Assembly: GCA_045535075.1 (NCBI GenBank) | Contig: JAZSKX010000007.1 | Location: 128,001-192,000, forward strand | Direction of reading: 5' to 3' | DNA: 64,000 nucleotides | Source: Candidatus Spyradenecus sp. | GTDB taxonomy: Bacteria; Verrucomicrobiota; Verrucomicrobiia; Opitutales; UBA953 | Shown here: positions 1 to 64,000 of the stretch, piece after piece | Position numbering within the stretch: the first letter of the stretch is position 1 | How the letters are laid out: every line of letters starts with the position of its first letter | The notes under the pieces: model-generated | Seen by the model: the letters and a program-made list of their open reading frames with translations, nothing else | What the model was told of the DNA's origin: nothing | Databases searched by the model: none | Position numbers and translations under genes: made by a program

Positions 1-118
1 TTGCGCGGGAACGGCGTTGCGGTTCGGGGCCGGACGAAGCAGGTTGCGAAAAATTCTCCGGAATGAATGCTTCGGAGGGAATTTCGTCGGGCTCAAAAAA
101 TGGCGCTTCGTCGGACAT
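1..118 (-). CDS. 5' part of an unidentified gene running off the left edge (MSDEAPFFEPDEIPSEAF...)
   Basis: ATG at 118 on the minus strand, open to position 1; preceded by a promoter-like TTGCAA-17-CATCAT; not in the ORF track because it is truncated. Confidence 0.45.
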   Translation of the reverse strand, partial: MSDEAPFFEPDEIPSEAFIPENFSQPASSGPEPQRRSRA

Positions 119-263
119 GTAAGGATTCTGAAAAATTAAAGAACCATGATGACGGAATTCTCCGCTCTTTGCAAATTGTTCCCGCAAACAAATTGAGAAA
201 TTCAGATAGGACGTTCAGCCGAATCCGAAGATGACACAAAAGGCGTTTTCCGAGATAAAAAGA

Positions 264-1901: not shown

Positions 1902-1923
1902 TCGCAAATTCGAGTTTTTTCGA

Positions 1924-1962
1924 GCGTTCCCGTAGACTTCAAAGTCGCGGGAACGTTTTTTT
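1924..1962 (+). terminator. efp terminator whose stem is an inverted pair of the CGTTCCCG motif
   Basis: GCGTTCCCGT-agacttcaaagtc-GCGGGAACGT followed by a T-run. Confidence 0.85.
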
Positions 1963-2021: not shown

Positions 2022-2028
2022 GCGCGCC

Positions 2029-16076: not shown

Positions 16077-17939
16077 TCAGACGACGAAAGGAAAGAAAAT
16101 CGGGATGAAGATGATTCCGATGATGAGGACGATAATCGAAAAAGGAACGCCTATTTTCACGAAGTCAAAAAACTTATAATTCCCGGGTTCGAGCACAAGG
16201 GTGTTTACCGGCGAGGAAATCGGAGTCATAAATGCAGTTGACGCAGCGATGGCAATTCCGATTGCAAACGGGTAGGGCGAAACGCTAAGTGACTGTGCGA
16301 TGCTGATTGCCAGCGGCGCAAGAAGAACTGCCGTTACCGTGTTAGACATGAAGAGTCCGACAACCATTGTAAACGCCATCAGTAATCCGAGGATAAGGCG
16401 CGGAGAGCCGTCTCCGAAAAAGGACATCAGCATGGAAACTGCGTGCTCGACGCCGCCTGTTTTTTCGAGTGCTGTCGCGAACGGAATCATTCCGATAATG
16501 AGAATCAGGCTTGCCCAATTGATGCAGCGATAGGCGCGATCAATGTCTATGCAACGCGAGAAAATCAGAATCATGCAGGCGATCAGCGCAGCGAGCACAC
16601 TCGGAATGCTCGTGAAAATCATGAGCCCGACCATGATTACCACGCTCAGAAGTGCGTAGGGGGCTCCGCCGGGCGCGGCGATGGCTCCCGCATATTCGGC
16701 GGGAACGTTTAAGATGATGAAGTGGCGCGTGTGCTTTTGAAGTGTCGGAATTTCTTTCCACGGACCGCCGATGAGAAGCGTATCCCCGACTTTGAGTTGT
16801 TCCCGTACGATTTCACTTGCTTTAATTGCGGTGTTGTTGCGGCGGATTCCGAAAACGCTCATGCGGTATTTTTCACGGAAATGAGCTTCGGCAAGCGTCT
16901 TGCCTTCAAGCGTCGACCCCGGCATTACGGAAATTTCCACAAAACCGAATTCGCGTTCAGCCTTTGTGAAGTGGCGGCTTTCGAGCGGGCGGCGGTCGAG
17001 GCAAAGTTTTTCGGAAACGAAATCAATTTCGCCCGGTCGCGGATCGTGTAGAAAATCGATCAACAACGCATCGCCTTCCCGTAGCTCCGTATCGGCGCCG
17101 GGGTTAATCAGGCTACGCTTTCCGAGGCGCTGTTCCCGCCGCTCGATGCAGACAATATTGGCTCCGTAGTCCGAGCGCAAAGTTGACTCCCGGATTTTCT
17201 TTCCGCGAAGCGGCGAATCGCGCGTGATGACAAAAACCGCGTCGCGCCAAGAGACCTGATAGCGCTCGGCGAGTTCAACGAAGTTGGTTGTTTTTTCGTC
17301 GCGGGAATTCTTTTTTTTGTCCGAGTCCGTTTCTTTTCCGAGGAATTTTCGGACGTAGAGCATGTAAAAAACACCGGCAACGAGGACAAGAATTCCGATC
17401 GGCGTAAAAGCAAAAAATCCGAGACTCGGATAATTTTCGCGCGTGAGGATCGCGTTAACAACCATGTTCGGCGGAGTTGCGACAAGCGACATCATCCCGC
17501 TTATTAAGCCGGCGAAACTCAGCGGCATCATCAATTTTGCCGGGGAAATTTTCAGCCGTGTCGAAATTCCGAGAACAATCGGAATGAAAAGAGCAACAAT
17601 GCCCGTCGAACTCATCACCGAACCGATCAGCGCGACGGCAACCATCAGAAAAACAATCAGCTTGGTCGGGCTGTTACGCGATTTTTTTAAAATCCAAATG
17701 CCGACATCCGTTGAAATGCCGGTGCGAATCAAGCCTTCGCCGACGACGAACATCAAAGCAATCAGAATGACACTCGGATCACTGAATCCGCTCAACGCTT
17801 CTTTAATGTCGATAATTCCCAAAAGCGGGAGCGACATTAGCGCGATTAGAGCTACGATGTCCATGCGCGGTTTGTTTAATACAAAAAAAACAACGCAAAT
17901 GCCTAAAAGAACGAGCGATAAAATCAAGTCCGAGCTCAT
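16077..17939 (-). CDS. SLC13 family permease with TrkA-C domains
   Basis: Two TM bundles flanking two TrkA-C repeats; ATPPN and FMTPISSPVN motifs. Confidence 0.88.
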   Translation of the reverse strand: MSSDLILSLVLLGICVVFFVLNKPRMDIVALIALMSLPLLGIIDIKEALSGFSDPSVILIALMFVVGEGLIRTGISTDVGIWILKKSRNSPTKLIVFLMVAVALIGSVMSSTGIVALFIPIVLGISTRLKISPAKLMMPLSFAGLISGMMSLVATPPNMVVNAILTRENYPSLGFFAFTPIGILVLVAGVFYMLYVRKFLGKETDSDKKKNSRDEKTTNFVELAERYQVSWRDAVFVITRDSPLRGKKIRESTLRSDYGANIVCIERREQRLGKRSLINPGADTELREGDALLIDFLHDPRPGEIDFVSEKLCLDRRPLESRHFTKAEREFGFVEISVMPGSTLEGKTLAEAHFREKYRMSVFGIRRNNTAIKASEIVREQLKVGDTLLIGGPWKEIPTLQKHTRHFIILNVPAEYAGAIAAPGGAPYALLSVVIMVGLMIFTSIPSVLAALIACMILIFSRCIDIDRAYRCINWASLILIIGMIPFATALEKTGGVEHAVSMLMSFFGDGSPRLILGLLMAFTMVVGLFMSNTVTAVLLAPLAISIAQSLSVSPYPFAIGIAIAASTAFMTPISSPVNTLVLEPGNYKFFDFVKIGVPFSIIVLIIGIIFIPIFFPFVV

Positions 17940-17965
17940 GAAATAAAATCAGAAAGTGATGGAGT

Positions 17966-18718
17966 TTAAAGCGGGCAGGCGGTTTCGATGAATTCCCACG
18001 GGAGAGAAAATTTTTCGGCGACTTCCGCCGCGAGCGCGCAGATGCCGAATTTTTCCGTCGCGTAATGACCGCACGGATACAAATTAAAGCCGCCTTCCTG
18101 TGCAGCCGTGAAGTATTCCTGCTTCAGTTCGCCGCAAACAAGCGTATCGCAACCGAGCGATTTCAACGCGGGAACAGCCGTGTTCCCGCTTCCGCAGAGC
18201 AGGGCAATTTTTTCCGGGGTTTCGCTTCCGAATTCAATCGCCTTAAATGTTGCCGGAAAGAGTTTTTTCAATTTTTCCTGGAGCTGTTCCCGCGACATGC
18301 CTTCACACACGGCGGCAAAGGTGTTGCCTTCGTATTCCAAGCCCCAATCGAGAATTCGGATTCCGAGTTCCCGCGCGAGAATTGCGTTGTTGCCGATTTC
18401 GCGATGCGCGTCGAGCGGAAGATGTGAAGAATAAACCGCCAAATCCGCGTCGAAGAGGGTTTTGAATTTTTTATAAATCGTTCCTGTAACCGGATGTTGC
18501 GCATGCCAAAACATGCCGTGGTGTACCAATAAAAGATTAATTCCGCGTCGCGCGGCTTCTTCAAAAACGTTCGATGAGGCATCGACGGCGGCACCGATTT
18601 TGCAAACATTGCCGCTGTTTTCAAATTGTAAGCCGTTGTTGGCACCGGGAAAATCCCGGAAGCCGATGCGTTGTGTGCGAGTGTCGCAATAGGCGACAAT
18701 ATCCGAAAGTTTTGCCAT
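17966..18718 (-). CDS. Nif3-like dinuclear metal center protein (YbgI/DUF34)
   Basis: NGLQ, VHHG, HLPLDAH, GNN, GHYATE. Confidence 0.92.
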   Translation of the reverse strand: MAKLSDIVAYCDTRTQRIGFRDFPGANNGLQFENSGNVCKIGAAVDASSNVFEEAARRGINLLLVHHGMFWHAQHPVTGTIYKKFKTLFDADLAVYSSHLPLDAHREIGNNAILARELGIRILDWGLEYEGNTFAAVCEGMSREQLQEKLKKLFPATFKAIEFGSETPEKIALLCGSGNTAVPALKSLGCDTLVCGELKQEYFTAAQEGGFNLYPCGHYATEKFGICALAAEVAEKFSLPWEFIETACPL

Positions 18719-18842
18719 AAGCGGAGATTCTACTTATGCCGTCGAGCGGCTTAAAGCAAAATTCCGAAAAACCTTATGTCCGTACTCAACATGTAATTTG
18801 AATTAAAATTGAAACGCTGAGGAGCTTGTCTACTCCGAAAAC

Positions 18843-18874
18843 AAAAAAGACCGAGCGGGAACTCGGTCTTTTTT
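18843..18874 (-). terminator. hpf terminator with GCGGGAAC spanning loop and stem
   Basis: AAAAAAGACCGAG-cgggaa-CTCGGTCTTTTTT. Confidence 0.8.
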
Positions 18875-18892
18875 GAGGGATGGAGGTTAAAT

Positions 18893-19252
18893 TTATTTTG
18901 TCTTCGGGATATCTTCTCCGATTTCAATTTCTTGCGGGTGATTCCGTTTTTCTTTTTCGAGGCGATGAGCCCGACGGATTTGGCGAATCAGCTTATCCAT
19001 TAATTCGTCAATCGACTTATAAAGGTCGTCCGAAGTAATGCTAAGAATAATATTCGGTCCCGGAATTTCCAGCGAAGCTTTTGCAACAAACGAGTTTTTC
19101 GGATCTTTGGTCGGGATGTATTCCAATTCAAAATTTGCACGGATGATGCGGTCGTTATGCTCAAAAAGCTTGGAAGCTTTTTCGCTGACGTAAGTTTTCA
19201 GGGCTTCCGTCAAATCAAGGTTGATACCGCTGATATTAATTTTTCCATTCAT
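18893..19252 (-). CDS. hpf: Ribosome hibernation promoting factor (short HPF/RaiA)
   Basis: INISGINLDLTEALKTYV...DLYKSID...KLIRQIRR. Confidence 0.9.
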   Translation of the reverse strand: MNGKINISGINLDLTEALKTYVSEKASKLFEHNDRIIRANFELEYIPTKDPKNSFVAKASLEIPGPNIILSITSDDLYKSIDELMDKLIRQIRRAHRLEKEKRNHPQEIEIGEDIPKTK

Positions 19253-19477
19253 GGGATATGTATTTTTACTCCTGGGGTTTGGGGTTGTAGGAGCTTGTTT
19301 TGCAATACTGCCAAACAAGAATTCGGGCTTCTCCCGAACTGCCGTGATTAGAGCAAATTCCGTGTGTGAACTCAATCCAAAACGCTCGAAATCCCGAAAT
19401 TTCCGACGGCGTTCCCGCGTGGAGCATTTATGAAATTCCGTATTCACGTTTCCGACTTTTCCCGTATTATTTTTCGC

Positions 19478-35921: not shown

Positions 35922-35959
35922 AACGTTCCCGTGGAAGCACTCGCGGGAACGTTTTTTTT
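35922..35959 (+). terminator. sucCD terminator built from a motif pair
   Basis: AACGTTCCCGTG-gaagcact-CGCGGGAACGTT followed by a T-run. Confidence 0.85.
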
Positions 35960-38954: not shown

Positions 38955-39143
38955 AATATTTGTCAGAATCTAATCCCAATCGCGTTCCCGCCGCAACGGC
39001 GAAGTTTTCGGTGAAATTGAATGTTTAAAATATTTCGGCGCTTGTGCTTTGCTTTGCGTTTGCAAGTTTACAGCGAAAATGAGAGACTTCCGGTCGGCTT
39101 CCTATTTTTAGAAGCAAACCCTATAAAACGACATATAAACTTT

Positions 39144-43125: not shown

Positions 43126-43159
43126 ACGCGTTCCCGTGTTTGCGGGAACGCGTTTTTTT
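43126..43159 (+). terminator. GH2 gene terminator built from a motif pair
   Basis: ACGCGTTCCCGT-gttt-GCGGGAACGCGT followed by a T-run. Confidence 0.88.
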
Positions 43160-43586: not shown

Positions 43587-43661
43587 TAGGTGACGAAGAC
43601 GCGGTTTTCCGTTTCTTTTTCGTTGAATTCATGCCGACGGAAGCGCAAAATCGTTGCAGTT

Positions 43662-46600
43662 ATGGCAAAATCAACATCTAAGTTCAAAACGATGGATGCT
43701 AACGAAGCCGTTGCATCCGTTGCTTACAGACTCAACGAAGTCATCGCGATTTATCCGATTACGCCATCTTCCCCGATGGCGGAATCCTGTGACGAGTGGT
43801 CGGCGAAAAAAATGCCGAACCTTTGGAATAATATTCCCTGTATCGAGCAACTCCAATCCGAAGCCGGGGTCGCGGGAGCGGTTCACGGTTCGTTGCTTGC
43901 CGGAGCGTTGACGACGACTTTCACTGCATCGCAAGGGCTTCTGCTCATGATCCCGAATATGTACAAAATTGCGGGCGAGCTGATTCCTTTTACAATGCAC
44001 GTTACGGCGCGCGCCATCGCGACGAACGCTCTTTCGATTTTCGGCGATCACTCCGACGTAATGGCCTGCCGAGCAACCGGCTTTGCCATGCTCAATTCCA
44101 CGTCCGGACAGGAAGCGCAAGACCTCGCACTTATCGCGCATGCAGCTTCGCTTAAGTCGCGCGTGCCGTTTATGCACTTCTTCGACGGCTTCCGCACCTC
44201 GCACGAAGTTTCCAAAATTCAAACGCTTTCGGACGACGAAATCCGCGCCGTTATCGACGAAGCCGACATTGCCGATTTCCGTTCCCGCGCCATGTCGCCG
44301 GATCGCCCGAATGTTCACGGAACGGCGCAGAATCCGGATGTCTATTTCCAAGGGCGCGAATCCGTTAACAAATACTACAATGCGCTCCCGCAAATTGTTC
44401 AGGATACGATGGACAAGTTTGCTGCGGCGACTGGGCGCCAATACCACCTCTTCGATTACTACGGAGCACCGGATGCCGATCGCGTTATTGTCTCCATGGG
44501 CTCGTCTTGCGAAACGATCGAAGAAACCATCGACGCGCTCAATGCGCAGGGTGCGAAGCTCGGCCTTGTCAAAGTCCGCCTCTTCCTGCCGTTTGATGCG
44601 GACGCATTTCTCAAGACCGTTCCCGCAACGGCAAAGAGCATTGCCGTTCTCGACCGCACGAAAGAGCCGGGATCGCTTGGCGAACCGCTTCTGCTCAATG
44701 TCTTCACGGCTTACGCGGAATCCGGAAAGGCGATGCCGTCCATCATCGGCGGCCGTTACGGAATCGGTTCGAAAGAATTCAACCCGGGTATGGTCAAGGC
44801 AATTTATGACGAGCTCGCCAAAGATGCTCCGAAAAAACGCTTCACCATCGGTATTTACGACGATTTGACAAATACTTCGCTCGAATGGGATAACGCATTC
44901 GATATCGAAGCGGACGACGTTAAGCGTGCTGTCTTCGTCGGTCTCGGCGCAGACGGAACGGTCGGTGCGAACAAAAACTCCATCAAAATTATCGGCGAAC
45001 AAACCCCGAATTTTGCTCAAGGCTACTTCGTTTACGACTCCAAGAAATCCGGAGCCTCGACGGTTTCTCACCTGCGTTTCGGTCCGAAACCGATTCGCTC
45101 GGCTTATCTTATCCAAAAGGCGGGATTTGTCGCTTGCTCGCAATACGTTTTCATCGGGCGCCAACCGATTCTCGAATACGCAATGCCGGGCGCAACGATT
45201 CTTCTGAATTCGCCGTTCTCCCCGGAAGAAACATGGAAGCGTTTCTCTAAGGAATGGCAGTCGGAAATTATCGAAAAGAAACTCCGTGTTTTTGTCATCG
45301 ACGCTTCTAAGGTTGCCGCCGATTCCGGCATGAAAGGACGCACGAACACCGTTATGCAGGCCTGCTTCTTTGCCCTTGCAAACGTTCTGCCGAAGGAAGA
45401 AGCCATCGAACAAATTAAGAAATCCATTCAGAAAACCTACGCGAAGAAGGGCGACGAAGTCGTTCAAATGAACTTCAAGGCGGTCGATAATTCGCTTGCA
45501 AATCTGCACGAAATTAGCGTTCCCGCGACGATTGAAGCCGACGCGCTCCCGCAGGCAATTCCGCAATACGAAGGCGCTCCGGAATTCTTCAAGCGCGTTC
45601 AGGCGATGATGATTGCCAATAAGGGCGACCTTATTCCGACCAGCGCCATGCCGGTGGACGGAACGTTCCCGTCGGCAACGACGCGCTTTGAAAAACGCGA
45701 TCTCGCCGACCAAATTCCTGTTTGGAATCCGGAACTTTGTATCCAGTGTAACAAGTGCGTGACGATTTGTCCGCACGCTGCCATCCGCGCTAAGTTTTAT
45801 CCGGAAGCCCTTAAGTCTGACGCTCCCGCTACGTTCAAGGGCGTGCCCTTCAAGGCAAAAGACTTCCCGGGAACGCTCTTCACGATTCAGGTCGCGCCGG
45901 AAGATTGCACCGGTTGCACGATTTGTACGCATGTTTGCCCGGGTAAGGACAAAAACGACCCGACCCGCAAGGCGCTCATGATGGCTCCGCAGCCGCCGCT
46001 GCGCGAAGCCGAAGCCAAGAACTGGGACTTCTTCCTCAATCTCCCGGATCCGGATCGCACCAAGCTCGGCAACACCATTCGCGATTCGCAGTTCATGACA
46101 CCGCTTATCGAGTTCTCCGGTGCTTGCGCCGCTTGCGGTGAAACCCCGTATATCAAGCTCATGACGCAACTTTTCGGCGATCGCACTTACATCGCGAACG
46201 CTACGGGTTGCTCTTCGATTTACGGCGGAAACTTACCGACGACTCCGTATTGCACCAATAAGGACGGACGCGGACCGGCTTGGGCAAACTCTCTCTTCGA
46301 AGACAACGCCGAATTCGGTCTCGGGATGCGCTACGCAATCGACAAGAAAACCGAAATCGCGCGTCAGGCTCTCAGCGAAGCTGCGGGAACGGTCGGCGAA
46401 GAATTCGCGAAGTCGATTCTTGAAGCTCCGCAATCCACCGAAGCGGATATTGCCGCACAGCGCGAACGTATCGCTGAGCTCTGCAAAAAGCTCGAAGCCG
46501 CGGGAACGCCGGAAGCCAAGAGCCTCATCGCTCTCTCCGAATTCCTCGTTAAGAAGAACGTTTGGATTGTCGGCGGCGACGGTTGGGCTTATGACATCGG

Positions 46601-47222
46601 CTACGGAGGACTTGACCACGCGATTGCTTCCGGCAAAAACATCAAGATTCTCGTCCTCGATACGGAAGTTTATTCCAACACCGGAGGACAGATGTCGAAG
46701 TCAACTTCAATCGGAGCGGTTGCAAAATTCGCTGCGGCAGGCAAGAAACTCCCGAAGAAGGATCTTGCGCAAATTGCCGTCCAGTACGGACACGTTTACG
46801 TGGCGCGCGTTGCGCTCGGCTACAAGGATACGCAAGTGCTCCAAGCCATGAAAGAAGCCGAAGCCTACGACGGACCGGCGATCATCATTGCTTACGCGCA
46901 CTGTATCGCGCACGGTTACCGCAATCTCGCAGACGGCGCGGCTCACCAGAAACTGGCGGTTGAATCCGGCTACTGGCCGATCTTCCGTTACAATCCGGCA
47001 AATATCGCGCTCGGGAAGAATCCGTTCTCTCTCGACACGCCGGCGCCGAAAGCACAAGTTCAGGACTTCATGAATTCGGAAACCCGCTTCAAAGGTCTGC
47101 AACGTTCCAATCCGGAACACGCGGCAGAACTCTACGCAAAGGCGCAGGAAGTCGTTTCCACCCGATTCCACTACTATCAGGAATCGAAGAAGGCCTACGA
47201 ACCGGCTCCGAAAGCGGAATAA
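43662..47222 (+). CDS. nifJ: Pyruvate:ferredoxin (flavodoxin) oxidoreductase
   Basis: YPITPSS, FTASQGLLLM, YDSKKSG, two CxxCxxCxxxCP motifs, GACAACGET, GGDGWAYDIG, EVYSNTGGQ. Confidence 0.97.
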   Translation: MAKSTSKFKTMDANEAVASVAYRLNEVIAIYPITPSSPMAESCDEWSAKKMPNLWNNIPCIEQLQSEAGVAGAVHGSLLAGALTTTFTASQGLLLMIPNMYKIAGELIPFTMHVTARAIATNALSIFGDHSDVMACRATGFAMLNSTSGQEAQDLALIAHAASLKSRVPFMHFFDGFRTSHEVSKIQTLSDDEIRAVIDEADIADFRSRAMSPDRPNVHGTAQNPDVYFQGRESVNKYYNALPQIVQDTMDKFAAATGRQYHLFDYYGAPDADRVIVSMGSSCETIEETIDALNAQGAKLGLVKVRLFLPFDADAFLKTVPATAKSIAVLDRTKEPGSLGEPLLLNVFTAYAESGKAMPSIIGGRYGIGSKEFNPGMVKAIYDELAKDAPKKRFTIGIYDDLTNTSLEWDNAFDIEADDVKRAVFVGLGADGTVGANKNSIKIIGEQTPNFAQGYFVYDSKKSGASTVSHLRFGPKPIRSAYLIQKAGFVACSQYVFIGRQPILEYAMPGATILLNSPFSPEETWKRFSKEWQSEIIEKKLRVFVIDASKVAADSGMKGRTNTVMQACFFALANVLPKEEAIEQIKKSIQKTYAKKGDEVVQMNFKAVDNSLANLHEISVPATIEADALPQAIPQYEGAPEFFKRVQAMMIANKGDLIPTSAMPVDGTFPSATTRFEKRDLADQIPVWNPELCIQCNKCVTICPHAAIRAKFYPEALKSDAPATFKGVPFKAKDFPGTLFTIQVAPEDCTGCTICTHVCPGKDKNDPTRKALMMAPQPPLREAEAKNWDFFLNLPDPDRTKLGNTIRDSQFMTPLIEFSGACAACGETPYIKLMTQLFGDRTYIANATGCSSIYGGNLPTTPYCTNKDGRGPAWANSLFEDNAEFGLGMRYAIDKKTEIARQALSEAAGTVGEEFAKSILEAPQSTEADIAAQRERIAELCKKLEAAGTPEAKSLIALSEFLVKKNVWIVGGDGWAYDIGYGGLDHAIASGKNIKILVLDTEVYSNTGGQMSKSTSIGAVAKFAAAGKKLPKKDLAQIAVQYGHVYVARVALGYKDTQVLQAMKEAEAYDGPAIIIAYAHCIAHGYRNLADGAAHQKLAVESGYWPIFRYNPANIALGKNPFSLDTPAPKAQVQDFMNSETRFKGLQRSNPEHAAELYAKAQEVVSTRFHYYQESKKAYEPAPKAE

Positions 47223-48883: not shown

Positions 48884-48924
48884 AAAAAAGCGTTCCCGCG
48901 AATTTTACGGGAACGCTCTTTTTT
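48884..48924. terminator. Bidirectional terminator built from a motif pair
   Basis: AAAAAAGCGTTCCCGCG-aatttt-ACGGGAACGCTCTTTTTT. Confidence 0.85.
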
Positions 48925-49962: not shown

Positions 49963-52326
49963 TTACTTAAAGAAGTCACCGAGCGAGCCGAAGCCGCCGG
50001 AAGAGCCGCCCGTTGAGAAGCGGCTCGGGGAACCGTCGTTCCCGCGATTGTCGCGACGCCCGAAGGTGTTCCCGTTTCCGCCGAAGCCGCCGCGCCGCGG
50101 AGCGTTCCCGCGCCCGTCGCGCTCGGCAAAACTTTCCCGCGCGCTGCGTGCCGCTTTTTCCGGATTCGTCTTCATCGAAAGCCCGATACGGCGGCGCGGA
50201 ATATCGACTTCCATCACCGTTACGGAAACTTTTTGCCCGACCTTTACCGCTTCCGCCGGATCTTTCACAAACGTATCCGAAATCTGCGATACGTGAACAA
50301 GCCCGTCCTGATGCACGCCGATATCGACGAATGCGCCGAACGCCGTCACGTTTGTAATGATTCCCGGCAAGCGCATCCCTTCCTTCAAATCGGAAATTTC
50401 GTGCACGCCTTCCTTGAACGAGAATACTTCAAACTTTTCGCGCGGATCGCGTCCGGGCTTTTCAAGTTCCTTCAAAATATCCTGCAAGGTAGGCAAGCCG
50501 ACATCCTCGGAAACATATTTTTTCAAATCAATGCGGGAACGCAGTTTCCCGTCGGCGAGCAACGCGGGAACGTCGCAACCCAAATCCGCCGCCATCTGCT
50601 CGACGAGCGCGTAGCGTTCCGGGTGCACGGCGGAGGCGTCGAGCGGGTGTTCGCCGTCGCGAATGCGCAAAAAGCCCGCGCATTGCTCAAAAGCTTTTTC
50701 ACCGAGGCGCGGCACTTTTTTCAAATCTTTGCGGGAACGGAACGCACCGTGTTCGTTGCGGTAGGCGACAATATTGGCGGCGATGCTCGCGTTTAAGCCG
50801 GAAACGTAGCTCAGAAGCTGCTTCGAGGCAGTATTCACTTCAACGCCGACTTTATTCACGCAGGAAATGACCACGTCGTCGAGCGAGCGCTTGAGCGCAA
50901 CTTGGTTCACGTCGTGCTGATATTGCCCGACTCCGATGCTTTTCGGGTCAATTTTAACAAGCTCCGCGAGCGGGTCCATGAGGCGGCGACCGATGGAAAC
51001 CGCGCCGCGCACCGTAACGTCTTCATTCGGAAATTCCTCGCGCGCCACTTCGCTTGCCGAGTAAATCGACGCGCCGCTTTCGTTGACGACGACGACCGGA
51101 ATCGACGCGGGAACGCCGCAACCGCGCACGAACGTTTCCGTTTCGCGGGAAGCCGTACCGTTCCCGATCGCGATTGCCTGAATTTTAAATTGGTGGCAAA
51201 GCAGGCGAATGCGGTTTTCCGCATCGGCGTATTGCGCGGACGAGCCGGCAGTCGGGTAAATCACTTCGTGGTGGAGCAATTTTCCCTGCGCGTCGAGCAC
51301 GACGAGTTTGCAGCCCGTGCGGAAACCCGGGTCGAGCGCAAGCACGCTTTTTTGCCCGAGCGCGGGCGCCATGAGAAGTTCGGAAACGTTGGACGCGAAA
51401 ACGCGAATCGCTTCTTCGTCTGCGCGTTCCTTCGACTTCAGTCGCGCCTCGGTTTCAAGAGACGGACCAAGCAGGCGTTTCCACGAATCGTGCGAAGCCG
51501 CGCGGACTTCGTTCCCGCAAGCACCGTTCCCGCCGACAAAAATTTTGTCCAAACGCGAAAATGCTTCATCTTCATTCACCGTGATGCGGAAAAACAGAAA
51601 GCCTTCCTTTTCGCCGCGGCGAATCGCCAAAACGCGGTGCGACGGCGCAGACGCGAGCGGCTCGCTCCACTCGAAGTAATCTTTGAATTTCGCGCCCTCG
51701 GCTTCCTTGCCTTTGATGACCTCGGAAGAAAGCTCGGCGGTTTTTTCGTAAATTTCACGGCAGGAAGCGCGCGCCGTTTTGTCGTCGGAAATGCGCTCGG
51801 CGAGAATGTCGCGTGCGCCCGCAAGCGCGGCGGCGACGTCGGGAACGTCTTTGTCGGGCGCGACGAATTTTGCGGCTTCAGCGGCGGGATCGGCGTTTTG
51901 ATTTTCAAAAATAAAATCGGCGAGCGGCTCGAGTCCGCGTTCCCGCGCGATCGTAGCGCGCGTGCGGCGCTTCGGTTTGTAGGGCGCGTAAATATCTTCG
52001 AGCTCGGTGGCGGTTTTGGCTTTTTCGACAGCGGCTTTGAGTTCCGGCGTAAGGTGTTTGTTGTCTTCGAGCGATTTGAGAATTGCGGCGCGGCGGGCGT
52101 CGAGCTCGCGGAGTTGCTCGAGGCGGTCGCGAATCGTTGCGATTTGCACTTCGTCCATTTCGCCGGTGGCTTCTTTGCGGTAGCGCGCGATAAACGGCAC
52201 GGTCGCGCCCTCTGCGAGGAGCTTGGCGACAGCCATGACGCGCGCCACGGCAAAGTTGTTTTCCTGCGCGATGCGCAAAACGTAATCGGAAATTGCGAGG
52301 GTGTTTTCGGTAGATGTTTCAGCCAT
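49963..52326 (-). CDS. tex: Tex family RNA-binding transcriptional accessory protein
   Basis: TVPFIARYRKE, LDPGFRTGCK, GNGTASRE, SIGVGQYQHDV, HhH motifs, C-terminal S1 domain. Confidence 0.95.
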   Translation of the reverse strand: MAETSTENTLAISDYVLRIAQENNFAVARVMAVAKLLAEGATVPFIARYRKEATGEMDEVQIATIRDRLEQLRELDARRAAILKSLEDNKHLTPELKAAVEKAKTATELEDIYAPYKPKRRTRATIARERGLEPLADFIFENQNADPAAEAAKFVAPDKDVPDVAAALAGARDILAERISDDKTARASCREIYEKTAELSSEVIKGKEAEGAKFKDYFEWSEPLASAPSHRVLAIRRGEKEGFLFFRITVNEDEAFSRLDKIFVGGNGACGNEVRAASHDSWKRLLGPSLETEARLKSKERADEEAIRVFASNVSELLMAPALGQKSVLALDPGFRTGCKLVVLDAQGKLLHHEVIYPTAGSSAQYADAENRIRLLCHQFKIQAIAIGNGTASRETETFVRGCGVPASIPVVVVNESGASIYSASEVAREEFPNEDVTVRGAVSIGRRLMDPLAELVKIDPKSIGVGQYQHDVNQVALKRSLDDVVISCVNKVGVEVNTASKQLLSYVSGLNASIAANIVAYRNEHGAFRSRKDLKKVPRLGEKAFEQCAGFLRIRDGEHPLDASAVHPERYALVEQMAADLGCDVPALLADGKLRSRIDLKKYVSEDVGLPTLQDILKELEKPGRDPREKFEVFSFKEGVHEISDLKEGMRLPGIITNVTAFGAFVDIGVHQDGLVHVSQISDTFVKDPAEAVKVGQKVSVTVMEVDIPRRRIGLSMKTNPEKAARSARESFAERDGRGNAPRRGGFGGNGNTFGRRDNRGNDGSPSRFSTGGSSGGFGSLGDFFK

Positions 52327-55680: not shown

Positions 55681-55723
55681 AAAAAAGCGTTCCCGCAACT
55701 CTCGCCGCGGGAACGCTTTTTTT
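55681..55723 (-). terminator. gdhA terminator built from a motif pair
   Basis: AAAAAAGCGTTCCCGC-aactctcgcc-GCGGGAACGCTTTTTTT. Confidence 0.88.
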
Positions 55724-57291: not shown

Positions 57292-57334
57292 AAAAAAACG
57301 TTCCCGTGAAAATATCCGCGGGAACGTCTTTTTT
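57292..57334 (-). terminator. PEP-CTERM gene terminator built from a motif pair
   Basis: AAAAAAACGTTCCCGTG-aaaatatc-CGCGGGAACGTCTTTTTT. Confidence 0.85.
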
Positions 57335-60300
57335 AAACTCTCTTTCGACGCCGTGTTCCGACGAGGAAGAGGGCGCCCAAGCCTGCAAGCAAACCGAAAG
57401 TTGTCGGTTCCGGAATGGCGAGCGTGAGCAACCCGTTCGTGTAAGACTCAACGTGCCAACCCGTTTCCCAGCCTTGGAGCTCAAACGAAGCCGTTGTCCA
57501 TGAATCGTCGAAGCTCGCGCCGCTTGCAGCGACTTGGTAAGTATAAGCCGTTCCCGCAGCGACGTCGAGTGTCGCGGATTCCGAGCGTTTGACAATGATT
57601 TTTCCGTCGCTGCCAATCGTCAGCGTTCCCGAGCCCGAAAGTGTTGCTTCCGTGTAAGAGCCCGAAACTTCCAATGTCAGGGAGCCTACAGCGAAGCTAC
57701 TCGTTGTAATATTAAGCTTCCCGCTTCCGCCGAGAATTTGGATGTTGGCTGCAGAAGCATTACTGTTTCCGCCGTTGGTTATGCATTCCACGGTTCCCTC
57801 TTCGATACGGAGCGTTCCCGCGGAAAGCGTTGTTTGGCTAAGGAAGAACTTGGCGGAGCCGGTTTTTGTCAAGGTGTGTCCGTCAAGATTCAATTGATTG
57901 GCGTGCCAGCCGGAGGAAATCATACCGAACTCGGCATCCGCTTGAACGACGGAATCCGCCGTAAGCCGGATTGCGTCATTGCCCGTAGCAATTTGTTTCT
58001 TTGTCGACCCGGTTGCGGCGCTTGCTTTGAGCGTTCCGCCTGCAAGGACGTATTTTCGTTCCGTGCCGTCCATGTTCGCCGCGAGTTCCAGTGTTGCTCC
58101 GGAAGTGACGGTAACCGTGTTGTTTGTCGCCGCTCCGAGCCCGTTGGCATGCGTAATTTTCAGCGTTCCCGCGAGAACTTCCGTGCCGCCGGAGTAGCTG
58201 TTGTTGCCGGAGAGCGTGAGTGTGCCGTCGTAGTCCTTAATCAGTTTTCCGCTTCCGGAGACGACACCGGAAATGCTCATCGGCATTCCTTCGTAAACAT
58301 GAAACCGTGTTCCTGAAGTGCTGTTGAGCGTAATGTTTTCTGCAATACTGGCTCCATTTGCGGCGTCTGTGTAAACAACGCCTTCGTTAAATGTAATTGA
58401 GACGTTGTTTTTTGCCGAATTGATTCCGCTTTCGCCGAAACCCAGCATCGCACCGTCGTTCAGAGTAAGCTCAAACTTGCCGGAACCTGCTTTTCCGGAG
58501 ACGGACTGTCCGATTCCCTTGGCGTAGAGGATTCCTCCGCCGTTGATAATGATGCTTCCGCCGTTATCTCCAAATCCGATTTCAGCGTTTTCAGCTGTCA
58601 GCGTGCCTTCAATCGTCAATGTGGTTGTGTTATTCCACTCGCCTAACACGACCGAATTCCCCTTGTAATCGTCTGAGGAGTTCCAGTTGTTGGTTGAACC
58701 GGTAATGTTCAGTTGCGCGTTTGATTTGAGGGTAACGGACGATGTTCCGCTGTTATTTGCATCTCCGACTTCCAGGCGTCCGGAAGTAATATGCGTTGCC
58801 GTTTTCCCGTCGCCGATGACAAGTGTGTCGCGCACATAAAGGCTTTGGCGTTCTCCGGTTCCCGAGAGCGTTATGTCGCCGACAAGATTCAGCGTTCCCG
58901 CCTCCTGACGCAAGGTTGTCGCGCTTCCGCCCGCGACGGAAAGCATTCCGCCCGTCTGCTTAATTTGCCCGTTCGAGGAAAGCGTTGTAATCGAGTTTGT
59001 TCCCGCTGTGAAGTTGACGGTTCCGCCTGTGTGGGAAAGGGTTTCGATTGTTGTATTTCCCCCGGAGAAGTTGACGGTTCCTTGGGAAATCGTCGCGGTT
59101 GCGAGTTCGGTCGTTCCCGTAAAATCGGTCGTTCCGCCTGCGCCGGTTTTGAATTCGCCGAGATTAACACTTCCGTTAAACGCAAGCGTCCCGTTGTTAC
59201 CGCGCTTGACGTAAGTTCCCTCGCCGGAAACGGAAGAGCTTTCCGAGAATGTCAGTTTCACGCCGCCGTTTTGGTGGAAATGCGCTTCGCCGTCCAAAAC
59301 AAGATTTTTCTCAAACGTGTATTCGCCCGTTAATTGGAATCCGTATCCGCTGCTATCGGTTCCCGTCGGAGCCGCCAAATGCAAGGTTTCGCCGAAAGAG
59401 GAGCCGTTAATCGTAAAGCGGGAGTTGGCGGACAAATAGGTCGTTCCCGTGAAAGCATCTCCGCTTCCGACGGAAATTGTGTTTCCCCAAGCCGCGGTAC
59501 CGAGCTTAACCGTTCCCGTGCCGGCGATATTCGGGTGCGAAAGACTTCCGCTGACCGAACCTAAATCCAAGGTTACGCCGTTGTTGATTGTAAGTGTTTT
59601 CGAGTCGGCAATCGTCAGTGTTCCCGGAGAAACGCTGATTGTTGTGCCTGTTCCCGTGAAGGAGACGCTTTCGTTGACCGTCATCGTTGCGGGGGAAACG
59701 CTTGCGTTGTCAGCGAGCGCAACCTGCGCGCCGGCGGTGGCGAAAATCACGCTGTCGCCCGGAGCGTAAGCGAATTTGCCTACGCCGTTGACCGTCCAGT
59801 TTGCGTTGGTGTTGTTCCATGTTCCCGCAGCGTTTTCGTCGCCCGCCCAAGTGAGCGTTCCCGCGCCGACGAGGACGGATCCGCCGCTTGCCGAGAGGCG
59901 TGCGGAAGTAACGGCGTTGCCGCTTTGCGTGAAGTTCGCCGCCGTCAAATCCGTCCAACCGGAAATCGTTCCCGCGCCGGAAATGAGCGTGTAAACATTG
60001 TCTTGAGCCGTCAGATTATCGAGCGCAAAGCTCGTCGTATCGGCGACGGAAACGGTTCCCGCGTTTTCGATGGCGCCGGAAAGATTGACCGTTCCCGTGA
60101 GCGCGAGCGTTCCCGAGGCGACGGAAATTCTGCCTTCGCCCGTCGTCGCGATTGCTTGCTCGGCGGCTTGCGTCAGCGTTGCGTCGCTTGCGATTGCGAT
60201 TTCAAGCGTGCCGCCGTTGACGGAAATATCGCCGGAGCCGAGCGCCGCAGCGTTTTGCGCAACGAGTTTTCCGGCGGAAATTGTTGTGCCGCCGGAATAG

Positions 60301-63300
60301 GTGTTCGCTCCGGAAAGTGTGAGTGTGCCGTCCGTGTTTTTGATGATTCCGAGAACGCCTTCGGTTACGAGGTTGCTACTCGTGTTTCCGCCGCGTTGAT
60401 AACTCTTATCCTGAATAATTCCGGCAAATTCGCCTTCGCCGATTGTCAGCTTGAAATTACCGCCCGTCATGCTTGCGGTTGAGCCGTAGCCGACACCGAT
60501 TTGCGTGTTTGCATTGCCGTCGAGATGCTTGACGGCAACGTCCTTCCAAATGCTCATAAACGCTTTTTGCGCCGAGCCGCCGGTCAAAACGACCGTTGCG
60601 TTTTCCAAGCTCGCGTTCAAGTCAATTCCGAGACTGTAGTTATTGGAGGAATCAACCGTGAGCGTCCCGGAAAAATCCTTGTCATTTCCGTCGATAATCA
60701 AACGTCCGTTGACATTAAAGTTGGAGTCTTGCGCTCGCGAATAAGTCAGCGTTCCTGCGCCGGAAAGTCCGCCTTGAATCGCAATTTCCTTTGCCCAGTT
60801 GGAATTCAGCGCGTGTGTTCCGTTAGCGGCGATATCTCCCGTAAACGCAAATTGGTAATCTCCGTTCGTTGACGGACTGACAGCGCTTGCGTCCCAAATG
60901 CTAAGCGTCGCTGTGTTATTCAGCGTGATCGCATTGGCAAACGTGCGATGCGTTCCCGCCGCGTTAAAGCGTAAAACACCGGTATCGGCGACGATGGCGC
61001 CGTTTCCGGAATTATTTGTTTCGATTACGAGCGTGCCTTCGGAAAGCGTCGCGGTGCTCCATGCGAGCGAAGCGCCCGTGAGCGTTATCGTTCCCGCGCC
61101 GGATTTCGTGAGCGTTCCCGTGCCGGAGATCGAATTATCGAAGGTTCCGTTGAAATTTAATTCGAGTTCTGCATTGTTTGTTACGGCTCCTGAACCGAGC
61201 GCATCCGCGTTGCTTGCAACGAGCTTTCCGTCGGAAATCGTTGTTCCTCCGGAATAGGAGTTCGCGTGGCTGAGCGCTATCGTTCCCGCGCCGGATTTTA
61301 CGAGCTTCCCGCTATCTCTAATGAGAGCGGAAATGCTAAGGTTAACATCTTCCGCAACTGCAAAATTTACGGCTCCGGTTCGCAAACGAATTGTAGCCGC
61401 AATGGAAGAATCCGCCGTTGCTGAGAGCGTGGTGGAATTTGACGCGTTGTTTCCGTTATAAAAATCCAACGCGCCGTGTTCGTCGCCCGTTCCCGTAATA
61501 TTGCCGCCGTTAAGGACGATCTGATTTCCCGTACCGATTGTCCAGCGTTTGGAATTGAAATTAAGTTCGCCTCCGTTGAGCGTAAGCGTGTTCGTTGCTC
61601 CGTAGTTCAAAGAATCGCTTGCATTGACGGTAACGGTTCCGCTTTCGAGCTGTAAATCTGCGGCAAATGAACCGCCGTTTAAGTTCACATTTCCGCCGGA
61701 AACGACCAAGGTTCCGTCGCCGGAAATATTTGAAGAAATCGTCCCGTTTTCAATCTGTAAATTACTTGAGAGATTAAGATTTCCGCCGGTGTGATTCAGC
61801 GTGCCGACGTTGGAGTTTGTTCCGGAAAGCGTTGTTGTTCCGCCGGTGTGATTTAGCGTGCCGATAGTTGCCGTTCCCGCGAAGGTATTATTGCCGCCGG
61901 CAATCCCGACGGATTTGCCTTCGGCGTTGAACGCGCCGTTGAAAGTCAGCCCGCTACCGTTGATGTAGAAATTATTGCCTTGAATTTCTCCGTCGCCGAT
62001 TTCGACGTCGGCGGCAATCGTCGTTACGGACTCTCCCCAGAACCAAACGCCGTTTGCGACGAGCTTTGTTGTTCCGCCGAGGTCGAATTTTGTATTCGTG
62101 GAGCAAATACGTCCGGAGACTTGGAACGTTCCCGTGAAATCGTCGGATAGTGCAATAGTCGAATTGTGCTCGCCCGTGCTCGTGTTGCCCCAAACAATTG
62201 TTCCGTTGCCGGTGATATTTTTGTTCAGTGCTCTGTTGAGTTCCGTCCCGAGATTCAGGGTCGTTCCCTCCGACAAGCTCAAATTCGCTCCGTTGTTAAT
62301 CGTGAGATTTGCATTCGCGATATTGATTGTTGCGCCTGTTCCCGTGAAGGAGATGCTTTCGTTGACCGTCATCGTTGCGGGGGAAACACTTGCGTTGTCG
62401 GCGAGCGCAACCTGCGCGCCGTCGGTGGCGAAAATCACGCTGTCGCCCGGAGCGTAAGCGAATTTGCCTGCGCCGTTGACTGTCCAGTTTGCGTCGGTGT
62501 TGTTCCATGTTCCCGCGGCGTTTTCGTTGCCCGCCCAAGTGAGCGTTCCCGCGCCGACGAGGACGGATCCGCCGCTTGCCGAGAGGCGTGCGGAAGCAAC
62601 GGCGTTGCCGCTTTGCGTGAAGTTCGCCGCCGTCAAATCCGTCCAACCGGAAATCGTTCCCGCGCCGGAAATGAGCGTGTAAACATTGTCTTGTGCCGTC
62701 AGATTATCGAGCGCAAAGCTCGTCGTATCGGCGACGGAAACGGTTCCCGCGTTTTCGATGGCGCCGGAAAGATTGACCGTTCCCGTGAGCGCGAGCGTTC
62801 CCGAGGCGACGGAAATTCTGCCTCCGCCTGTCGTCGCGATTGCTTGCTCGGCGGCTTGCGTCAGCGTTGCGTCGCTTGCGATTGCGATTTCAAGCGTGCC
62901 GCCGTTGACGGAAATATCGCCGGAGCCGAGCGCCGCAGCGTTTTGCGCAACGAGCTTCCCGGCGGAAATCGTTGTGCCGCCGGCGGAGTTGTTCGTTCCC
63001 GCGAGCGTTTGTGTTCCCGCACCGGTTTTTACCAAGGCGACGTTTGAAAGAATAGTTCCGTTGTACGTATAGTTTCCGTCGGCAGCCGTATTGATTTCTA
63101 AGGTGCGCAACGTTTCGTCAGAGGAAAAATTATCTCCCGTCTGTGCTCCGGAAAATACCGAAACCGACTTTCCGCTTGCACTTTCTAATCCTGCAATGAC
63201 GACGCGGTCGGCGTTCACGCCGAGCCCCATTCCGTGATTATTTTCCGCAAACGAAATAACGGCGTTCTTGGCAATATTCTGATTGCTGATGACCAATGCC

Positions 63301-64000
63301 GATTTTCTCGTGTCGTTTGCCGTATTTGAGACAACGATTTTTCCCGAAAAATCATCTCCCGAGACAGCGGTCGAGTCTTTTCCCAAGGTATAGACGGCGG
63401 ATTTTGCCGTGTTCATTTTTACCGTGGAAACGAGATTCAGCGTCGCGTTGTTTCCGAGTAGCTTATTGATTGTAACGCTATGCGTTTGAACTCCGCTCAT
63501 GTCGGACAATTTCATCGTCGCCGATGCGTTGTCCGCAAGAGAAACGGAATCGAAAACATAGCCTTGTCCGACCGTTTCTATCGTGGCGCCGTTCCCCATC
63601 GAAATTTCGCCGACGGAAACGCGACTGCCCGCATTGTTGTAAAGAGCGCTTGTTGAGGAAAACTGCGCGGTTCCTCCTCCAAGCTCCAGGCGATCAATGC
63701 TGACGTTTGTGTTTCCCGAGTTGCCGGAGAAAGTGAGCGTTCCCGCGTTGGAAGAAAGCGAATCTAAGTCAACGCTTCCGTTAAAGGTTTTTGTTCCCGA
63801 CCCGGCGTTAAATGCCATCGACGGGAGTGTTACCGATCCGTTGAAAACAAAGCCTTGAGTGAGGTCTTTGTTAAAAGTGAAGCGGCCTGTGCCGGAGATG
63901 TCTCCGCTTACCGTCAGCGTTCCCGCCCTATAACCGTCCGTGAGCGTAATATTGCTGTTTAAAATCAGGTCGGAGGCGATCGGATTGCTTGAATTTTGAT
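57333..64000 (-). CDS. Giant surface protein with autotransporter-associated beta-strand repeats and a PEP-CTERM sorting signal (5' end beyond the window)
   Basis: Repeated K.G.GT.TLSG.N.YSGGT motifs; C-terminal IPEPTTFGLLAGLGALFLVGTRRRKRV; frame stays open from 63818 to the window edge. Confidence 0.92.
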   Translation of the reverse strand, partial: QNSSNPIASDLILNSNITLTDGYRAGTLTVSGDISGTGRFTFNKDLTQGFVFNGSVTLPSMAFNAGSGTKTFNGSVDLDSLSSNAGTLTFSGNSGNTNVSIDRLELGGGTAQFSSTSALYNNAGSRVSVGEISMGNGATIETVGQGYVFDSVSLADNASATMKLSDMSGVQTHSVTINKLLGNNATLNLVSTVKMNTAKSAVYTLGKDSTAVSGDDFSGKIVVSNTANDTRKSALVISNQNIAKNAVISFAENNHGMGLGVNADRVVIAGLESASGKSVSVFSGAQTGDNFSSDETLRTLEINTAADGNYTYNGTILSNVALVKTGAGTQTLAGTNNSAGGTTISAGKLVAQNAAALGSGDISVNGGTLEIAIASDATLTQAAEQAIATTGGGRISVASGTLALTGTVNLSGAIENAGTVSVADTTSFALDNLTAQDNVYTLISGAGTISGWTDLTAANFTQSGNAVASARLSASGGSVLVGAGTLTWAGNENAAGTWNNTDANWTVNGAGKFAYAPGDSVIFATDGAQVALADNASVSPATMTVNESISFTGTGATINIANANLTINNGANLSLSEGTTLNLGTELNRALNKNITGNGTIVWGNTSTGEHNSTIALSDDFTGTFQVSGRICSTNTKFDLGGTTKLVANGVWFWGESVTTIAADVEIGDGEIQGNNFYINGSGLTFNGAFNAEGKSVGIAGGNNTFAGTATIGTLNHTGGTTTLSGTNSNVGTLNHTGGNLNLSSNLQIENGTISSNISGDGTLVVSGGNVNLNGGSFAADLQLESGTVTVNASDSLNYGATNTLTLNGGELNFNSKRWTIGTGNQIVLNGGNITGTGDEHGALDFYNGNNASNSTTLSATADSSIAATIRLRTGAVNFAVAEDVNLSISALIRDSGKLVKSGAGTIALSHANSYSGGTTISDGKLVASNADALGSGAVTNNAELELNFNGTFDNSISGTGTLTKSGAGTITLTGASLAWSTATLSEGTLVIETNNSGNGAIVADTGVLRFNAAGTHRTFANAITLNNTATLSIWDASAVSPSTNGDYQFAFTGDIAANGTHALNSNWAKEIAIQGGLSGAGTLTYSRAQDSNFNVNGRLIIDGNDKDFSGTLTVDSSNNYSLGIDLNASLENATVVLTGGSAQKAFMSIWKDVAVKHLDGNANTQIGVGYGSTASMTGGNFKLTIGEGEFAGIIQDKSYQRGGNTSSNLVTEGVLGIIKNTDGTLTLSGANTYSGGTTISAGKLVAQNAAALGSGDISVNGGTLEIAIASDATLTQAAEQAIATTGEGRISVASGTLALTGTVNLSGAIENAGTVSVADTTSFALDNLTAQDNVYTLISGAGTISGWTDLTAANFTQSGNAVTSARLSASGGSVLVGAGTLTWAGDENAAGTWNNTNANWTVNGVGKFAYAPGDSVIFATAGAQVALADNASVSPATMTVNESVSFTGTGTTISVSPGTLTIADSKTLTINNGVTLDLGSVSGSLSHPNIAGTGTVKLGTAAWGNTISVGSGDAFTGTTYLSANSRFTINGSSFGETLHLAAPTGTDSSGYGFQLTGEYTFEKNLVLDGEAHFHQNGGVKLTFSESSSVSGEGTYVKRGNNGTLAFNGSVNLGEFKTGAGGTTDFTGTTELATATISQGTVNFSGGNTTIETLSHTGGTVNFTAGTNSITTLSSNGQIKQTGGMLSVAGGSATTLRQEAGTLNLVGDITLSGTGERQSLYVRDTLVIGDGKTATHITSGRLEVGDANNSGTSSVTLKSNAQLNITGSTNNWNSSDDYKGNSVVLGEWNNTTTLTIEGTLTAENAEIGFGDNGGSIIINGGGILYAKGIGQSVSGKAGSGKFELTLNDGAMLGFGESGINSAKNNVSITFNEGVVYTDAANGASIAENITLNSTSGTRFHVYEGMPMSISGVVSGSGKLIKDYDGTLTLSGNNSYSGGTEVLAGTLKITHANGLGAATNNTVTVTSGATLELAANMDGTERKYVLAGGTLKASAATGSTKKQIATGNDAIRLTADSVVQADAEFGMISSGWHANQLNLDGHTLTKTGSAKFFLSQTTLSAGTLRIEEGTVECITNGGNSNASAANIQILGGSGKLNITTSSFAVGSLTLEVSGSYTEATLSGSGTLTIGSDGKIIVKRSESATLDVAAGTAYTYQVAASGASFDDSWTTASFELQGWETGWHVESYTNGLLTLAIPEPTTFGLLAGLGALFLVGTRRRKRV
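59646..60295. repeat. Internal direct repeat, copy 1 (~650 bp)
   Basis: Near-identical to 62334-62983; offset 2688 bp, in frame. Confidence 0.9.
62334..62983. repeat. Internal direct repeat, copy 2 (~650 bp)
   Basis: About 15-20 substitutions against copy 1 by eye, no indels seen. Confidence 0.9.

Follow-up and report, generated by a model that had tools for sequence, protein, structure and literature searches.

What keeps one eight-base word recurring about every 337 bp, within genes as well as between genes, over 64 kb of bacterial DNA? The word, CGTTCCCG, recurs in a 64,000-bp stretch (here called the window) of Candidatus Spyradenecus sp., and the original prediction read it as a new DNA uptake sequence, that is, as a self-recognition signal for natural transformation in a Verrucomicrobiota lineage. 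The window corresponds to G000:C8:128001-192000 of its source genome (G000), a draft assembly of 18 contigs. Analysis of this genome and its relatives indicated that CGTTCCCG is a genus-specific, hyperabundant word that is kept by a sequence-biased process acting on the whole chromosome. We tentatively favor, with rather less than even confidence and by analogy with known systems, the view that it may be a self-recognition word of the DNA uptake type, spread by molecular drive.

An octamer repeated across the chromosome

Exact matches to CGTTCCCG numbered 190 in the window (100 on the plus strand and 90 on the minus strand), whereas 100 dinucleotide-preserving shuffles of the window gave a mean of 6.50 copies (standard deviation, 2.65; maximum, 12). 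A further 233 sites were one-mismatch variants of the word. The original prediction had tallied about 46 cores in the first 16 kb and about 90 in the first 33 kb, close to the recounted 45 and 91, and had rightly described one-mismatch variants as common and the two strands as about equally used; its split of 26 to 20 within the first 16 kb was not reproduced (20 on the plus strand and 25 on the minus strand), and its expectation of 2 to 3 copies for the whole window was somewhat low. The genome held 5,159 copies (2,632 and 2,527 by strand) in 1,949,087 bp, or one per 378 bp (2.65 per kb), compared with 77 copies of the reversed word. CGTTCCCG was the commonest 8-mer of the genome, in which the median canonical 8-mer occurred 34 times, the 99.9th percentile lay at 721, and the next unrelated 8-mer reached 1,228.

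A longer 10-mer (GCGTTCCCGC/GCGGGAACGC), also named in the original prediction, accounted for 66 of the 190 window copies and 1,614 of the 5,159 genome copies. Since it covers a minority of the copies, the recurrent core stands but the unit is the 8-mer with weak flanks. With all genome sites aligned, the word was preceded by G in 47% of cases and followed by C (63%) or T (25%) and then by G or A, giving the weakly extended form gCGTTCCCGy; before position -2 and beyond position +3, the flanks carried at most 0.03 bits. The logo proposed along with the prediction therefore came out as an 8-mer with only two weakly informative flanking bases. Within the core, positions 4, 7, and 8 tolerated the fewest variants and positions 1 to 3 the most. 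The word is nonpalindromic.

Could so frequent a word arise as a by-product, whether of peptide repeats, of biased codon pairs, of terminator stems, or of a repeat element that has decayed? Genes were called as a crude longest-ORF set of 1,546 open reading frames (ORFs) covering 91.0% of the DNA. By these calls, 4,462 copies were coding, and the remaining 697 (13.5%), in intergenic DNA or at gene boundaries, fell within the noncoding 9%. Coding copies occupied all six frames, with 2,636 to 2,640 (59%) antisense versus 1,826 to 1,829 sense. When synonymous codons were shuffled within ORFs (20 times, keeping proteins and codon usage), 189 ± 14 sense and 315 ± 14 antisense copies were obtained, about 503 in total, versus 4,469 observed in that comparison (1,829 sense and 2,640 antisense); nine-tenths of the coding copies were thus abolished. 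Codon permutation gave 74 sense-type and 90 antisense-type copies, and an order-3 Markov model predicted 306 and 282 (about 588) versus 5,159. The maximal-order Markov expectation approximately equaled the observation (2,565 versus 2,632); this means that the constituent 7-mers are enriched too, and therefore it is no evidence against CGTTCCCG. Enrichment persisted, then, under the codon- and amino-acid-preserving null on which the original prediction had staked itself.

Some copies do have the setting that a by-product would have. Terminator stems use the word, and seven giant repeat-protein ORFs (5.7 to 14.4 kb) held 238 copies, almost all antisense and mostly encoding the peptide AGTL through codons that make up the word, which explains part of the antisense excess. 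Genome-wide, AGTL was also the commonest context of the frame used in the giant PATR-repeat gene of the window (231 of 1,448). The giant ORFs include C5:125845-140217, C9:13798-25875, C8:185333-198142 (which contains window positions 57333 to 64000), and four more. The 26 copies at the window's end share the strand and frame of this one repetitive gene and are therefore not independent. However, at least one copy was carried by 782 of the 840 ORFs that were 900 nt or longer, at a median of 2.45 per kb, just 5.5% of copies stood in terminator-like pairs, and conserved flanks were absent and indels rare at the sites. As a full explanation, a by-product is already refuted, and we consider it very improbable.

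A polar chromosome signal, either Chi (read by RecBCD/AddAB) or KOPS (read by FtsK), would likewise be an over-represented, G/C-rich octamer read by a DNA-processing motor, and a RecD2 helicase is encoded in G000. Such signals, however, are far rarer and strongly co-oriented with replication. As judged by the sign of GC skew in 88 segments of 20 kb, in a draft assembly without a mapped origin, CGTTCCCG lay on the plus and minus strands 1,147 and 1,323 times (46%) where the skew was positive and 1,227 and 967 times (56%) where it was negative. The replication polarity of the word is weak, 54 to 56% at most, and its own C-richness together with gene-strand bias could give it. In agreement with the absence of Chi- or KOPS-like polarity, for which a check of replichore bias had been suggested at the outset, both orientations are paired in hairpins; a polar signal is the least probable of the explanations considered here.

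The density of CGTTCCCG was even, at 2.0 to 3.2 per kb on every contig longer than 15 kb. Spacing was near random (coefficient of variation, 1.10; median, 262 versus 259 for an exponential distribution), with an excess of long copy-free gaps (16 gaps of at least 3.2 kb versus 1 expected).

Confinement to one genus

In one Opitutales genus from the gut, enrichment of CGTTCCCG was seen in all 19 genomes. Fourteen species besides G000 had 5,161 to 7,777 copies, and four had far lower density (1,365 in G001, 1,347 in G002, 1,385 in G013, and 552 in G014); reversed-word controls across the other genus genomes gave 73 to 159. Density in the high-density species was one copy per 220 to 380 bp, and a 100-kb sample of G003 contained 455 copies. 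In four sister genera of the same family, none of 102 genomes exceeded 2.4 times its own control. Genomes of twelve other families of the order (12 genomes) stood at about the control level (at most 1.7 times), and in a sample of 250 genomes of the phylum, the 10-mer never exceeded 96 copies, versus 1,614 in G000.

Even in the low-density species G001 and G013, no 8-mer in the samples outranked the word itself, and 50 kb of G014 contained no other dominant word. The survey of related genomes envisaged in the original prediction thus recovered the same word across the genus, and the dialect motifs that it had also envisaged were not seen in the samples of G001, G013, and G014. The assignment to Verrucomicrobiota was borne out by the relatives found with a pilin query, namely, Opitutales bacterium, Candidatus Spyradosoma sp., and Candidatus Spyradenecus sp., all from animal guts; NCBI places Spyradosoma in Verrucomicrobiota, class Opitutia. 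Full-text literature yielded nothing on CGTTCCCG or on uptake sequences in Verrucomicrobia or Spyradosoma, in line with the earlier remark that no such signal was known from this group.

Gain, maintenance, and decay by substitution

One low-density species, the sister species G013, was compared with G000 site by site in a genome-wide comparison that covered about 93% of G013. Of the CGTTCCCG sites of G013, 789 of 948 (83%) were intact in G000, although the flanks were just 84.6% identical, which argues that the word is actively maintained in G000. In the other direction, 788 of 3,105 G000 sites (25%) were intact in G013. Conservation in G013 depended on the class of site: 102 of 129 terminator-pair sites were conserved, versus 649 of 2,814 coding sites and 42 of 162 other intergenic sites. 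The word has thus decayed in G013 everywhere except in terminators, surviving only where a hairpin needs it. Of the 1,071 sites intact in G000 and differing by a single base in G013, the largest class, with 189, had C at core position 4 in G013; differences of C to G at core positions 5 to 7 were also frequent (95, 60, and 69; G000 versus G013, unpolarised), and the spectrum did not resemble plain transition decay.

Indels were found at 85 of the 3,105 aligned sites, and 97% of the differences between the two species at aligned sites were substitutions. REP and MITE dispersed repeats have longer conserved sequence and are gained by insertion, whereas CGTTCCCG has no informative flanks and changes by substitution; therefore, it is not a mobile repeat. 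The gene for pyruvate:ferredoxin oxidoreductase illustrates this origin, since its copies aligned gaplessly with orthologous sites that differ by one or two bases in other species. Of the seven G000 sites in this gene, four were common to the distant high-density species G003 and G010, and at these sites the nearest relatives, G001 and G013 (88% identical), had variants. A six-taxon tree of this gene alone was (G010,G003),(G014,(G000,(G013,G001))). Four species (G001, G002, G013, and G014) carry decayed copies, and the single-gene tree, together with the sites shared with G003 and G010, favors an ancestral word with two probable decays; from one gene, parallel gain is also possible.

A solitary DNA methyltransferase acting together with very-short-patch repair of the Vsr type could in principle convert near-matches into CGTTCCCG, and a model of this kind was once proposed for the cyanobacterial word HIP1 (GCGATCGC). 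An excerpt from PMC4390886 links HIP1 with orphan methyltransferases and describes some cyanobacteria as HIP1 poor, to which the four low-density species could be the analogue. Among the 19 genomes, however, none of four methyltransferase families (PF00145, PF01555, PF02384, and PF02086) tracked the copy number. PF00145 was absent from eight high-density genomes and present in three low-density ones, PF01555 was absent from G000, G004, and G006, PF02384 was absent from G018, G008, G012, and G003, and PF02086 was absent from eight high-density genomes; G018 (7,023 copies; 97% complete) had none of the four except for a 41-residue fragment. Vsr was found in 1 of the 19. Moreover, known repair effects of this kind alter word counts by fractions, not 70-fold. 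This explanation is largely refuted, and we regard it as improbable.

Inverted pairs that resemble terminators

Between genes of G000, CGTTCCCG was paired with its complement as CGTTCCCG-loop-CGGGAACG 138 times, versus 19 times in the opposite arrangement, with a modal loop of 12 nt. A T-run after and/or an A-run before was present in 122 of the 138. These terminator-like pairs are predicted intrinsic terminators, as in the uptake-sequence class; six lie in the window (Table 1).

Word density of prophages and viral DNA

Two Mu-like prophages or remnants of G000, both outside the window and absent from G013, were word poor relative to the genome (Table 1). The only PF02086 methylase matches of G000 lie in the larger of them, on C16. 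Copy-free stretches as such were considered as a mark of foreign DNA; this held for the two prophages and not for the longest such stretch of the window, which contains ordinary genes; the lack of copies in a stretch is thus no proof of foreign origin.

In a scan of viral contigs for hairpin pairs, which is no survey of phages, at least 120 viral stretches had such a pair, and the DNA of 80 of these was covered. Among these 80, one contig was word dense (L207:1-14565). It is a host/prophage junction from a member of the genus, its first 4.5 kb being 81% identical to host DNA of G000, and its phage part (about 4.9 to 14.6 kb), which encodes terminase, portal, and tail proteins, held 15 copies in about 9.6 kb (about 1.6 per kb), including copies in terminase and tail genes. 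Such a contig would also be expected from a process that affects whatever DNA resides in the cell. L207 is compatible with both uptake and a cell-wide process, and it weighs slightly towards the latter. In another viral contig, L252 (12.7 kb; GC content, 0.33), the G/C-rich word occurred twelve times although the DNA is AT-rich.

Uptake as the proposed biased step

Under the uptake reading, a type IV pilus/competence machine would preferentially bind and import fragments that carry the word, and DprA, ComM, and RecA-type recombination would insert them into the chromosome. A point mutation giving rise to the word would then spread and one destroying it would be replaced (molecular drive), the drive stopping only where protein function forbids CGTTCCCG; inverted pairs would have taken on the role of intrinsic terminators in both directions. 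We infer that uptake would be the biased step, that the organism would be transformable, and that some protein of it would serve as the receptor.

Much of such a machine is encoded in G000. A retraction ATPase of the PilT/PilU family (435 bits; cutoff, 319), ComM (580 bits; cutoff, 362), an equivalog match to DprA, a secretin of 984 amino acids, and two PilB/GspE ATPases were found, along with seven prepilin-type proteins, four of them clustered and weakly resembling the Verru_Chthon cassette. The ComEC-family protein is short (570 amino acids), with a Competence domain, a weak DUF4131 match, and no lactamase_B domain, and it was intact in all 19 genomes of the genus. None of the competence genes lies within the window, as had been noted from the start. 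The presence of most of this machinery in the lineage speaks for the original prediction, as do the persistence of the enrichment under the codon-preserving null and the lack of strong polarity. The 59% antisense share of coding copies also counts for uptake, because gene-strand bias is reported for known uptake sequences as well, according to an excerpt from PMC2346458.

Several results weigh against this reading, as does the word-dense phage DNA of L207. In G000, the ComEA models HHH_3 and TIGR00426 matched nothing beyond a Tex-like protein and some weak, below-cutoff fragments, and the Tex-like gene was rejected as ComEA despite its strong HHH_3 match. The ComP_DUS domain (PF16732) had no match in G000 at an E value of ≤0.1. 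All seven mature prepilins are acidic (calculated pI, 4.1 to 5.9), and therefore none stands out as a DNA binder. Thus, of the genes that the original prediction had proposed to look for, PilT, secretin, ComEC, DprA, and ComM are present and ComEA and a ComP-like minor pilin were not found. The density of CGTTCCCG is three to five times that of the uptake sequences known as DUS and USS. Finally, just 5.5% of copies stand in terminator-like pairs, versus about half for known uptake sequences (an excerpt from 10.1101/2025.10.24.684340).

The decayed species G013 adds to this side of the balance. It keeps PilB, PilT-like and PilC-like proteins, secretin, seven prepilins, ComEC, DprA, and ComM without stops, at 63 to 97% identity to G000 (ComEC, 63%, at the 14th percentile of 1,174 gene pairs; DprA, 77%; other genes of the set, 80 to 97%). 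Loss of the machinery therefore does not explain the decay, and loss of competence genes was rejected as its cause for G013, where all are intact, and for ComEC in all 19 genomes. When the 1,546 ORFs of G000 were compared with the covered part of G013, 319 were absent or weak, and 66 runs had syntenic flanks; absences outside such runs are unreliable (DnaE was scored as absent, its region being outside the covered part). The genes inspected among those missing from G013 in word-rich syntenic context were, by eye, those for sugar epimerases, a cupin, PEP-CTERM proteins, an ankyrin protein, outer-membrane barrels, thiol-redox proteins, permeases, a DinD-like protein, and a glycosyltransferase. 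No DNA-related candidate appeared among them in 18 translations inspected by eye, with no family search, which also speaks against uptake.

Matches to N_methyl numbered 11 in all four low-density genomes, 7 in twelve high-density genomes, and 10 to 11 in three high-density genomes. In G013, an operon of four prepilin-type genes and three larger ORFs, by eye T2SS-like assembly genes (G013:C19:69449-74535), adjoins genes syntenic with G000 C5:140-145 kb and is absent from G000. By N_methyl counts and spacing, this extra pseudopilin operon is present in G001, G002, G013, G018, G012, and G004, and the layout in G014 differs. It was rejected as the cause of decay, since three high-density genomes also have it with the same spacing.

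Relation to HIP1 and to known uptake sequences

Alternatively, CGTTCCCG could be HIP1-like in a broad sense: selection or biased repair, instead of biased uptake, would maintain it as the site favored by a different DNA transaction that is abundant and sequence specific. It might be bound by a nucleoid or chromosome-organizing protein, act as an orientation-free hotspot of recombination or repair, or mark DNA as 'self' and so protect it from a host nuclease. In favor of this reading, copies originate by substitution, within genes too; about 1.6 copies per kb in the prophage of a genus member is what one expects if any resident DNA is shaped or selected; the decayed G013 retains the whole competence set; and neither ComEA nor a basic pilin was found in G000. 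A density of one per 220 to 380 bp, moreover, fits HIP1 as given in an excerpt from PMC5861425 (more than one motif per gene; 15- to 300-fold excess) better than it fits that of DUS or USS. No candidate protein was found, however, and CGTTCCCG is nonpalindromic, with no partner spacing besides that of the terminator hairpins; its spacing is near random, so that the phasing reported for HIP1 is not seen. The function of HIP1 is itself debated, and parts of two recent sources propose it as an uptake or transformation signal (PMC13756078; 10.1101/2024.09.10.611283); therefore, the two readings may not be distinct. A HIP1-like role other than uptake is possible, though somewhat doubtful, and we rank it second, after uptake.

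The resemblance to HIP1 extends to an octamer of comparable density and fold excess that is written into genes by substitution and lost in some lineages. HIP1 is nevertheless a palindrome that two methylases recognize and has a phylum-wide range, whereas CGTTCCCG is asymmetric, is confined to one genus, and is tracked by no methyltransferase family tested. With the DUS of Neisseriaceae, read by ComP, it shares the form of a short nonpalindromic word present in thousands of copies, in both orientations, in genes and between them, and restricted to a lineage, with inverted pairs that are terminator-like and a type IV pilus with PilT, secretin, ComEC, DprA, and ComM. It differs from DUS in the word itself, in having 8 rather than 10 to 12 informative bases, in its phylum, Verrucomicrobiota, in the lack of a ComP_DUS domain, of ComEA, and of dialects in what was sampled, in the small share of copies in terminator-like pairs, and in being about three times denser. 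Like the USS of Pasteurellaceae, it has a core of similar length that uses every reading frame, though not all equally, and that originates by point substitution. The USS receptor is unknown, as here. For USS, molecular drive is a sufficient explanation, according to the part of the literature consulted. In contrast to USS, the word is a different one and far denser, and it lacks phased AT-rich flanking segments.

Because defining features of the ComP/DUS and USS systems were looked for and not found, CGTTCCCG is best filed within the class of hyperabundant words, outside both systems. That the motif matches neither had been correctly anticipated: the word differs, and neither the ComP_DUS domain nor the AT-rich segments were present. 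The broader proposal of self-DNA recognition was supported in its genomic hallmarks (lineage restriction, terminator pairs, substitution origin, and scarcity in prophages) and not in ComEA, ComP_DUS, or a basic prepilin. We place uptake first because these hallmarks match and because HIP1, the only other known phenomenon of comparable magnitude, has itself lately been suggested to act in uptake or transformation.

Further features of the window

The coordinates of the features discussed here are collected in Table 1. Two ORFs of the window have no match in the covered part of G013: one at 26811-28889 (plus strand), with BspA-type leucine-rich repeats and a caspase (Peptidase_C14) domain, and one at 47596-48762 (plus strand), an LPD3-domain ORF within word-rich DNA. 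LPD3 (large polyvalent protein-associated domain 3) is usual in polyvalent proteins of mobile elements.

Table 1. Features of the window and the two Mu-like prophages of G000 (window positions unless a contig is given)
Feature	Coordinates	Strand	Description
CGTTCCCG field	1..64000	both	190 copies versus 6.5 expected
Terminator-like pair	1925..1955		CGTTCCCG, 15-nt loop, CGGGAACG, T-run; between ORF ending at 1907 (-) and ORF starting at 2109 (+)
Longest copy-free stretch	16708..19409		2.7 kb, GC 0.48; ordinary genes (CitMHS transporter, NIF3, hibernation factor)
Terminator-like pair	35924..35951		12-nt loop, T-run; directly past CoA-ligase gene 35008-35892
Terminator-like pair	43129..43150		6-nt loop, T-run; directly past GH2 glycosidase gene 39021-43103
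Pyruvate:ferredoxin oxidoreductase gene	43590..47222	+	7 copies; used for orthologue comparison and six-taxon tree
Terminator-like pair	48891..48915		9-nt loop, A-run before, T-run after; between convergent genes
Tex-like gene	49963..52326	-	sole strong HHH_3 (ComEA-type) match in G000
Terminator-like pair	55688..55715		12-nt loop, A-run before, T-run after; between Rho-like and glutamate dehydrogenase genes
Terminator-like pair	57299..57326		12-nt loop, A-run before, T-run after; directly downstream of giant PATR-repeat gene
Giant PATR-repeat (autotransporter-like) gene	57333..63998	-	open 5' end; 26 antisense copies, one frame, repeated peptide
Mu-like prophage/remnant	G000:C16:182520-221508		phrog_310 transposase, terminase, portal; 23 copies, 0.59 per kb
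Mu-like prophage/remnant	G000:C8:21104-35120		phrog_310 transposase; 5 copies, 0.36 per kb

Implications

As far as the literature search showed, sequence-specific DNA uptake has been described from just two families, both proteobacterial, and an excerpt from 10.1101/2025.10.24.684340 names no others. We suggest, with due reserve, that CGTTCCCG might be the first uptake sequence outside the Proteobacteria, in a gut Opitutales genus, with the highest density known, a receptor unrelated to ComP, and two lineages that switched it off while keeping the pilus. If so, it would be a third independent case of an uptake word, in another phylum and in an uncultured gut lineage, and self-DNA tagging would be seen to evolve repeatedly. 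It would also point to natural transformation in a group whose gene exchange is unstudied. The word could then label DNA of the genus in metagenomes, flag foreign islands, and improve genetic tools upon culture, and the switched-off lineages that keep the pilus would be a natural mutant set for finding the receptor. Whatever the mechanism, the contrast within the genus (15 species with 5,159 to 7,777 copies, three with about 1,350 to 1,385, and one with 552) is a rare natural experiment on how a word is maintained.

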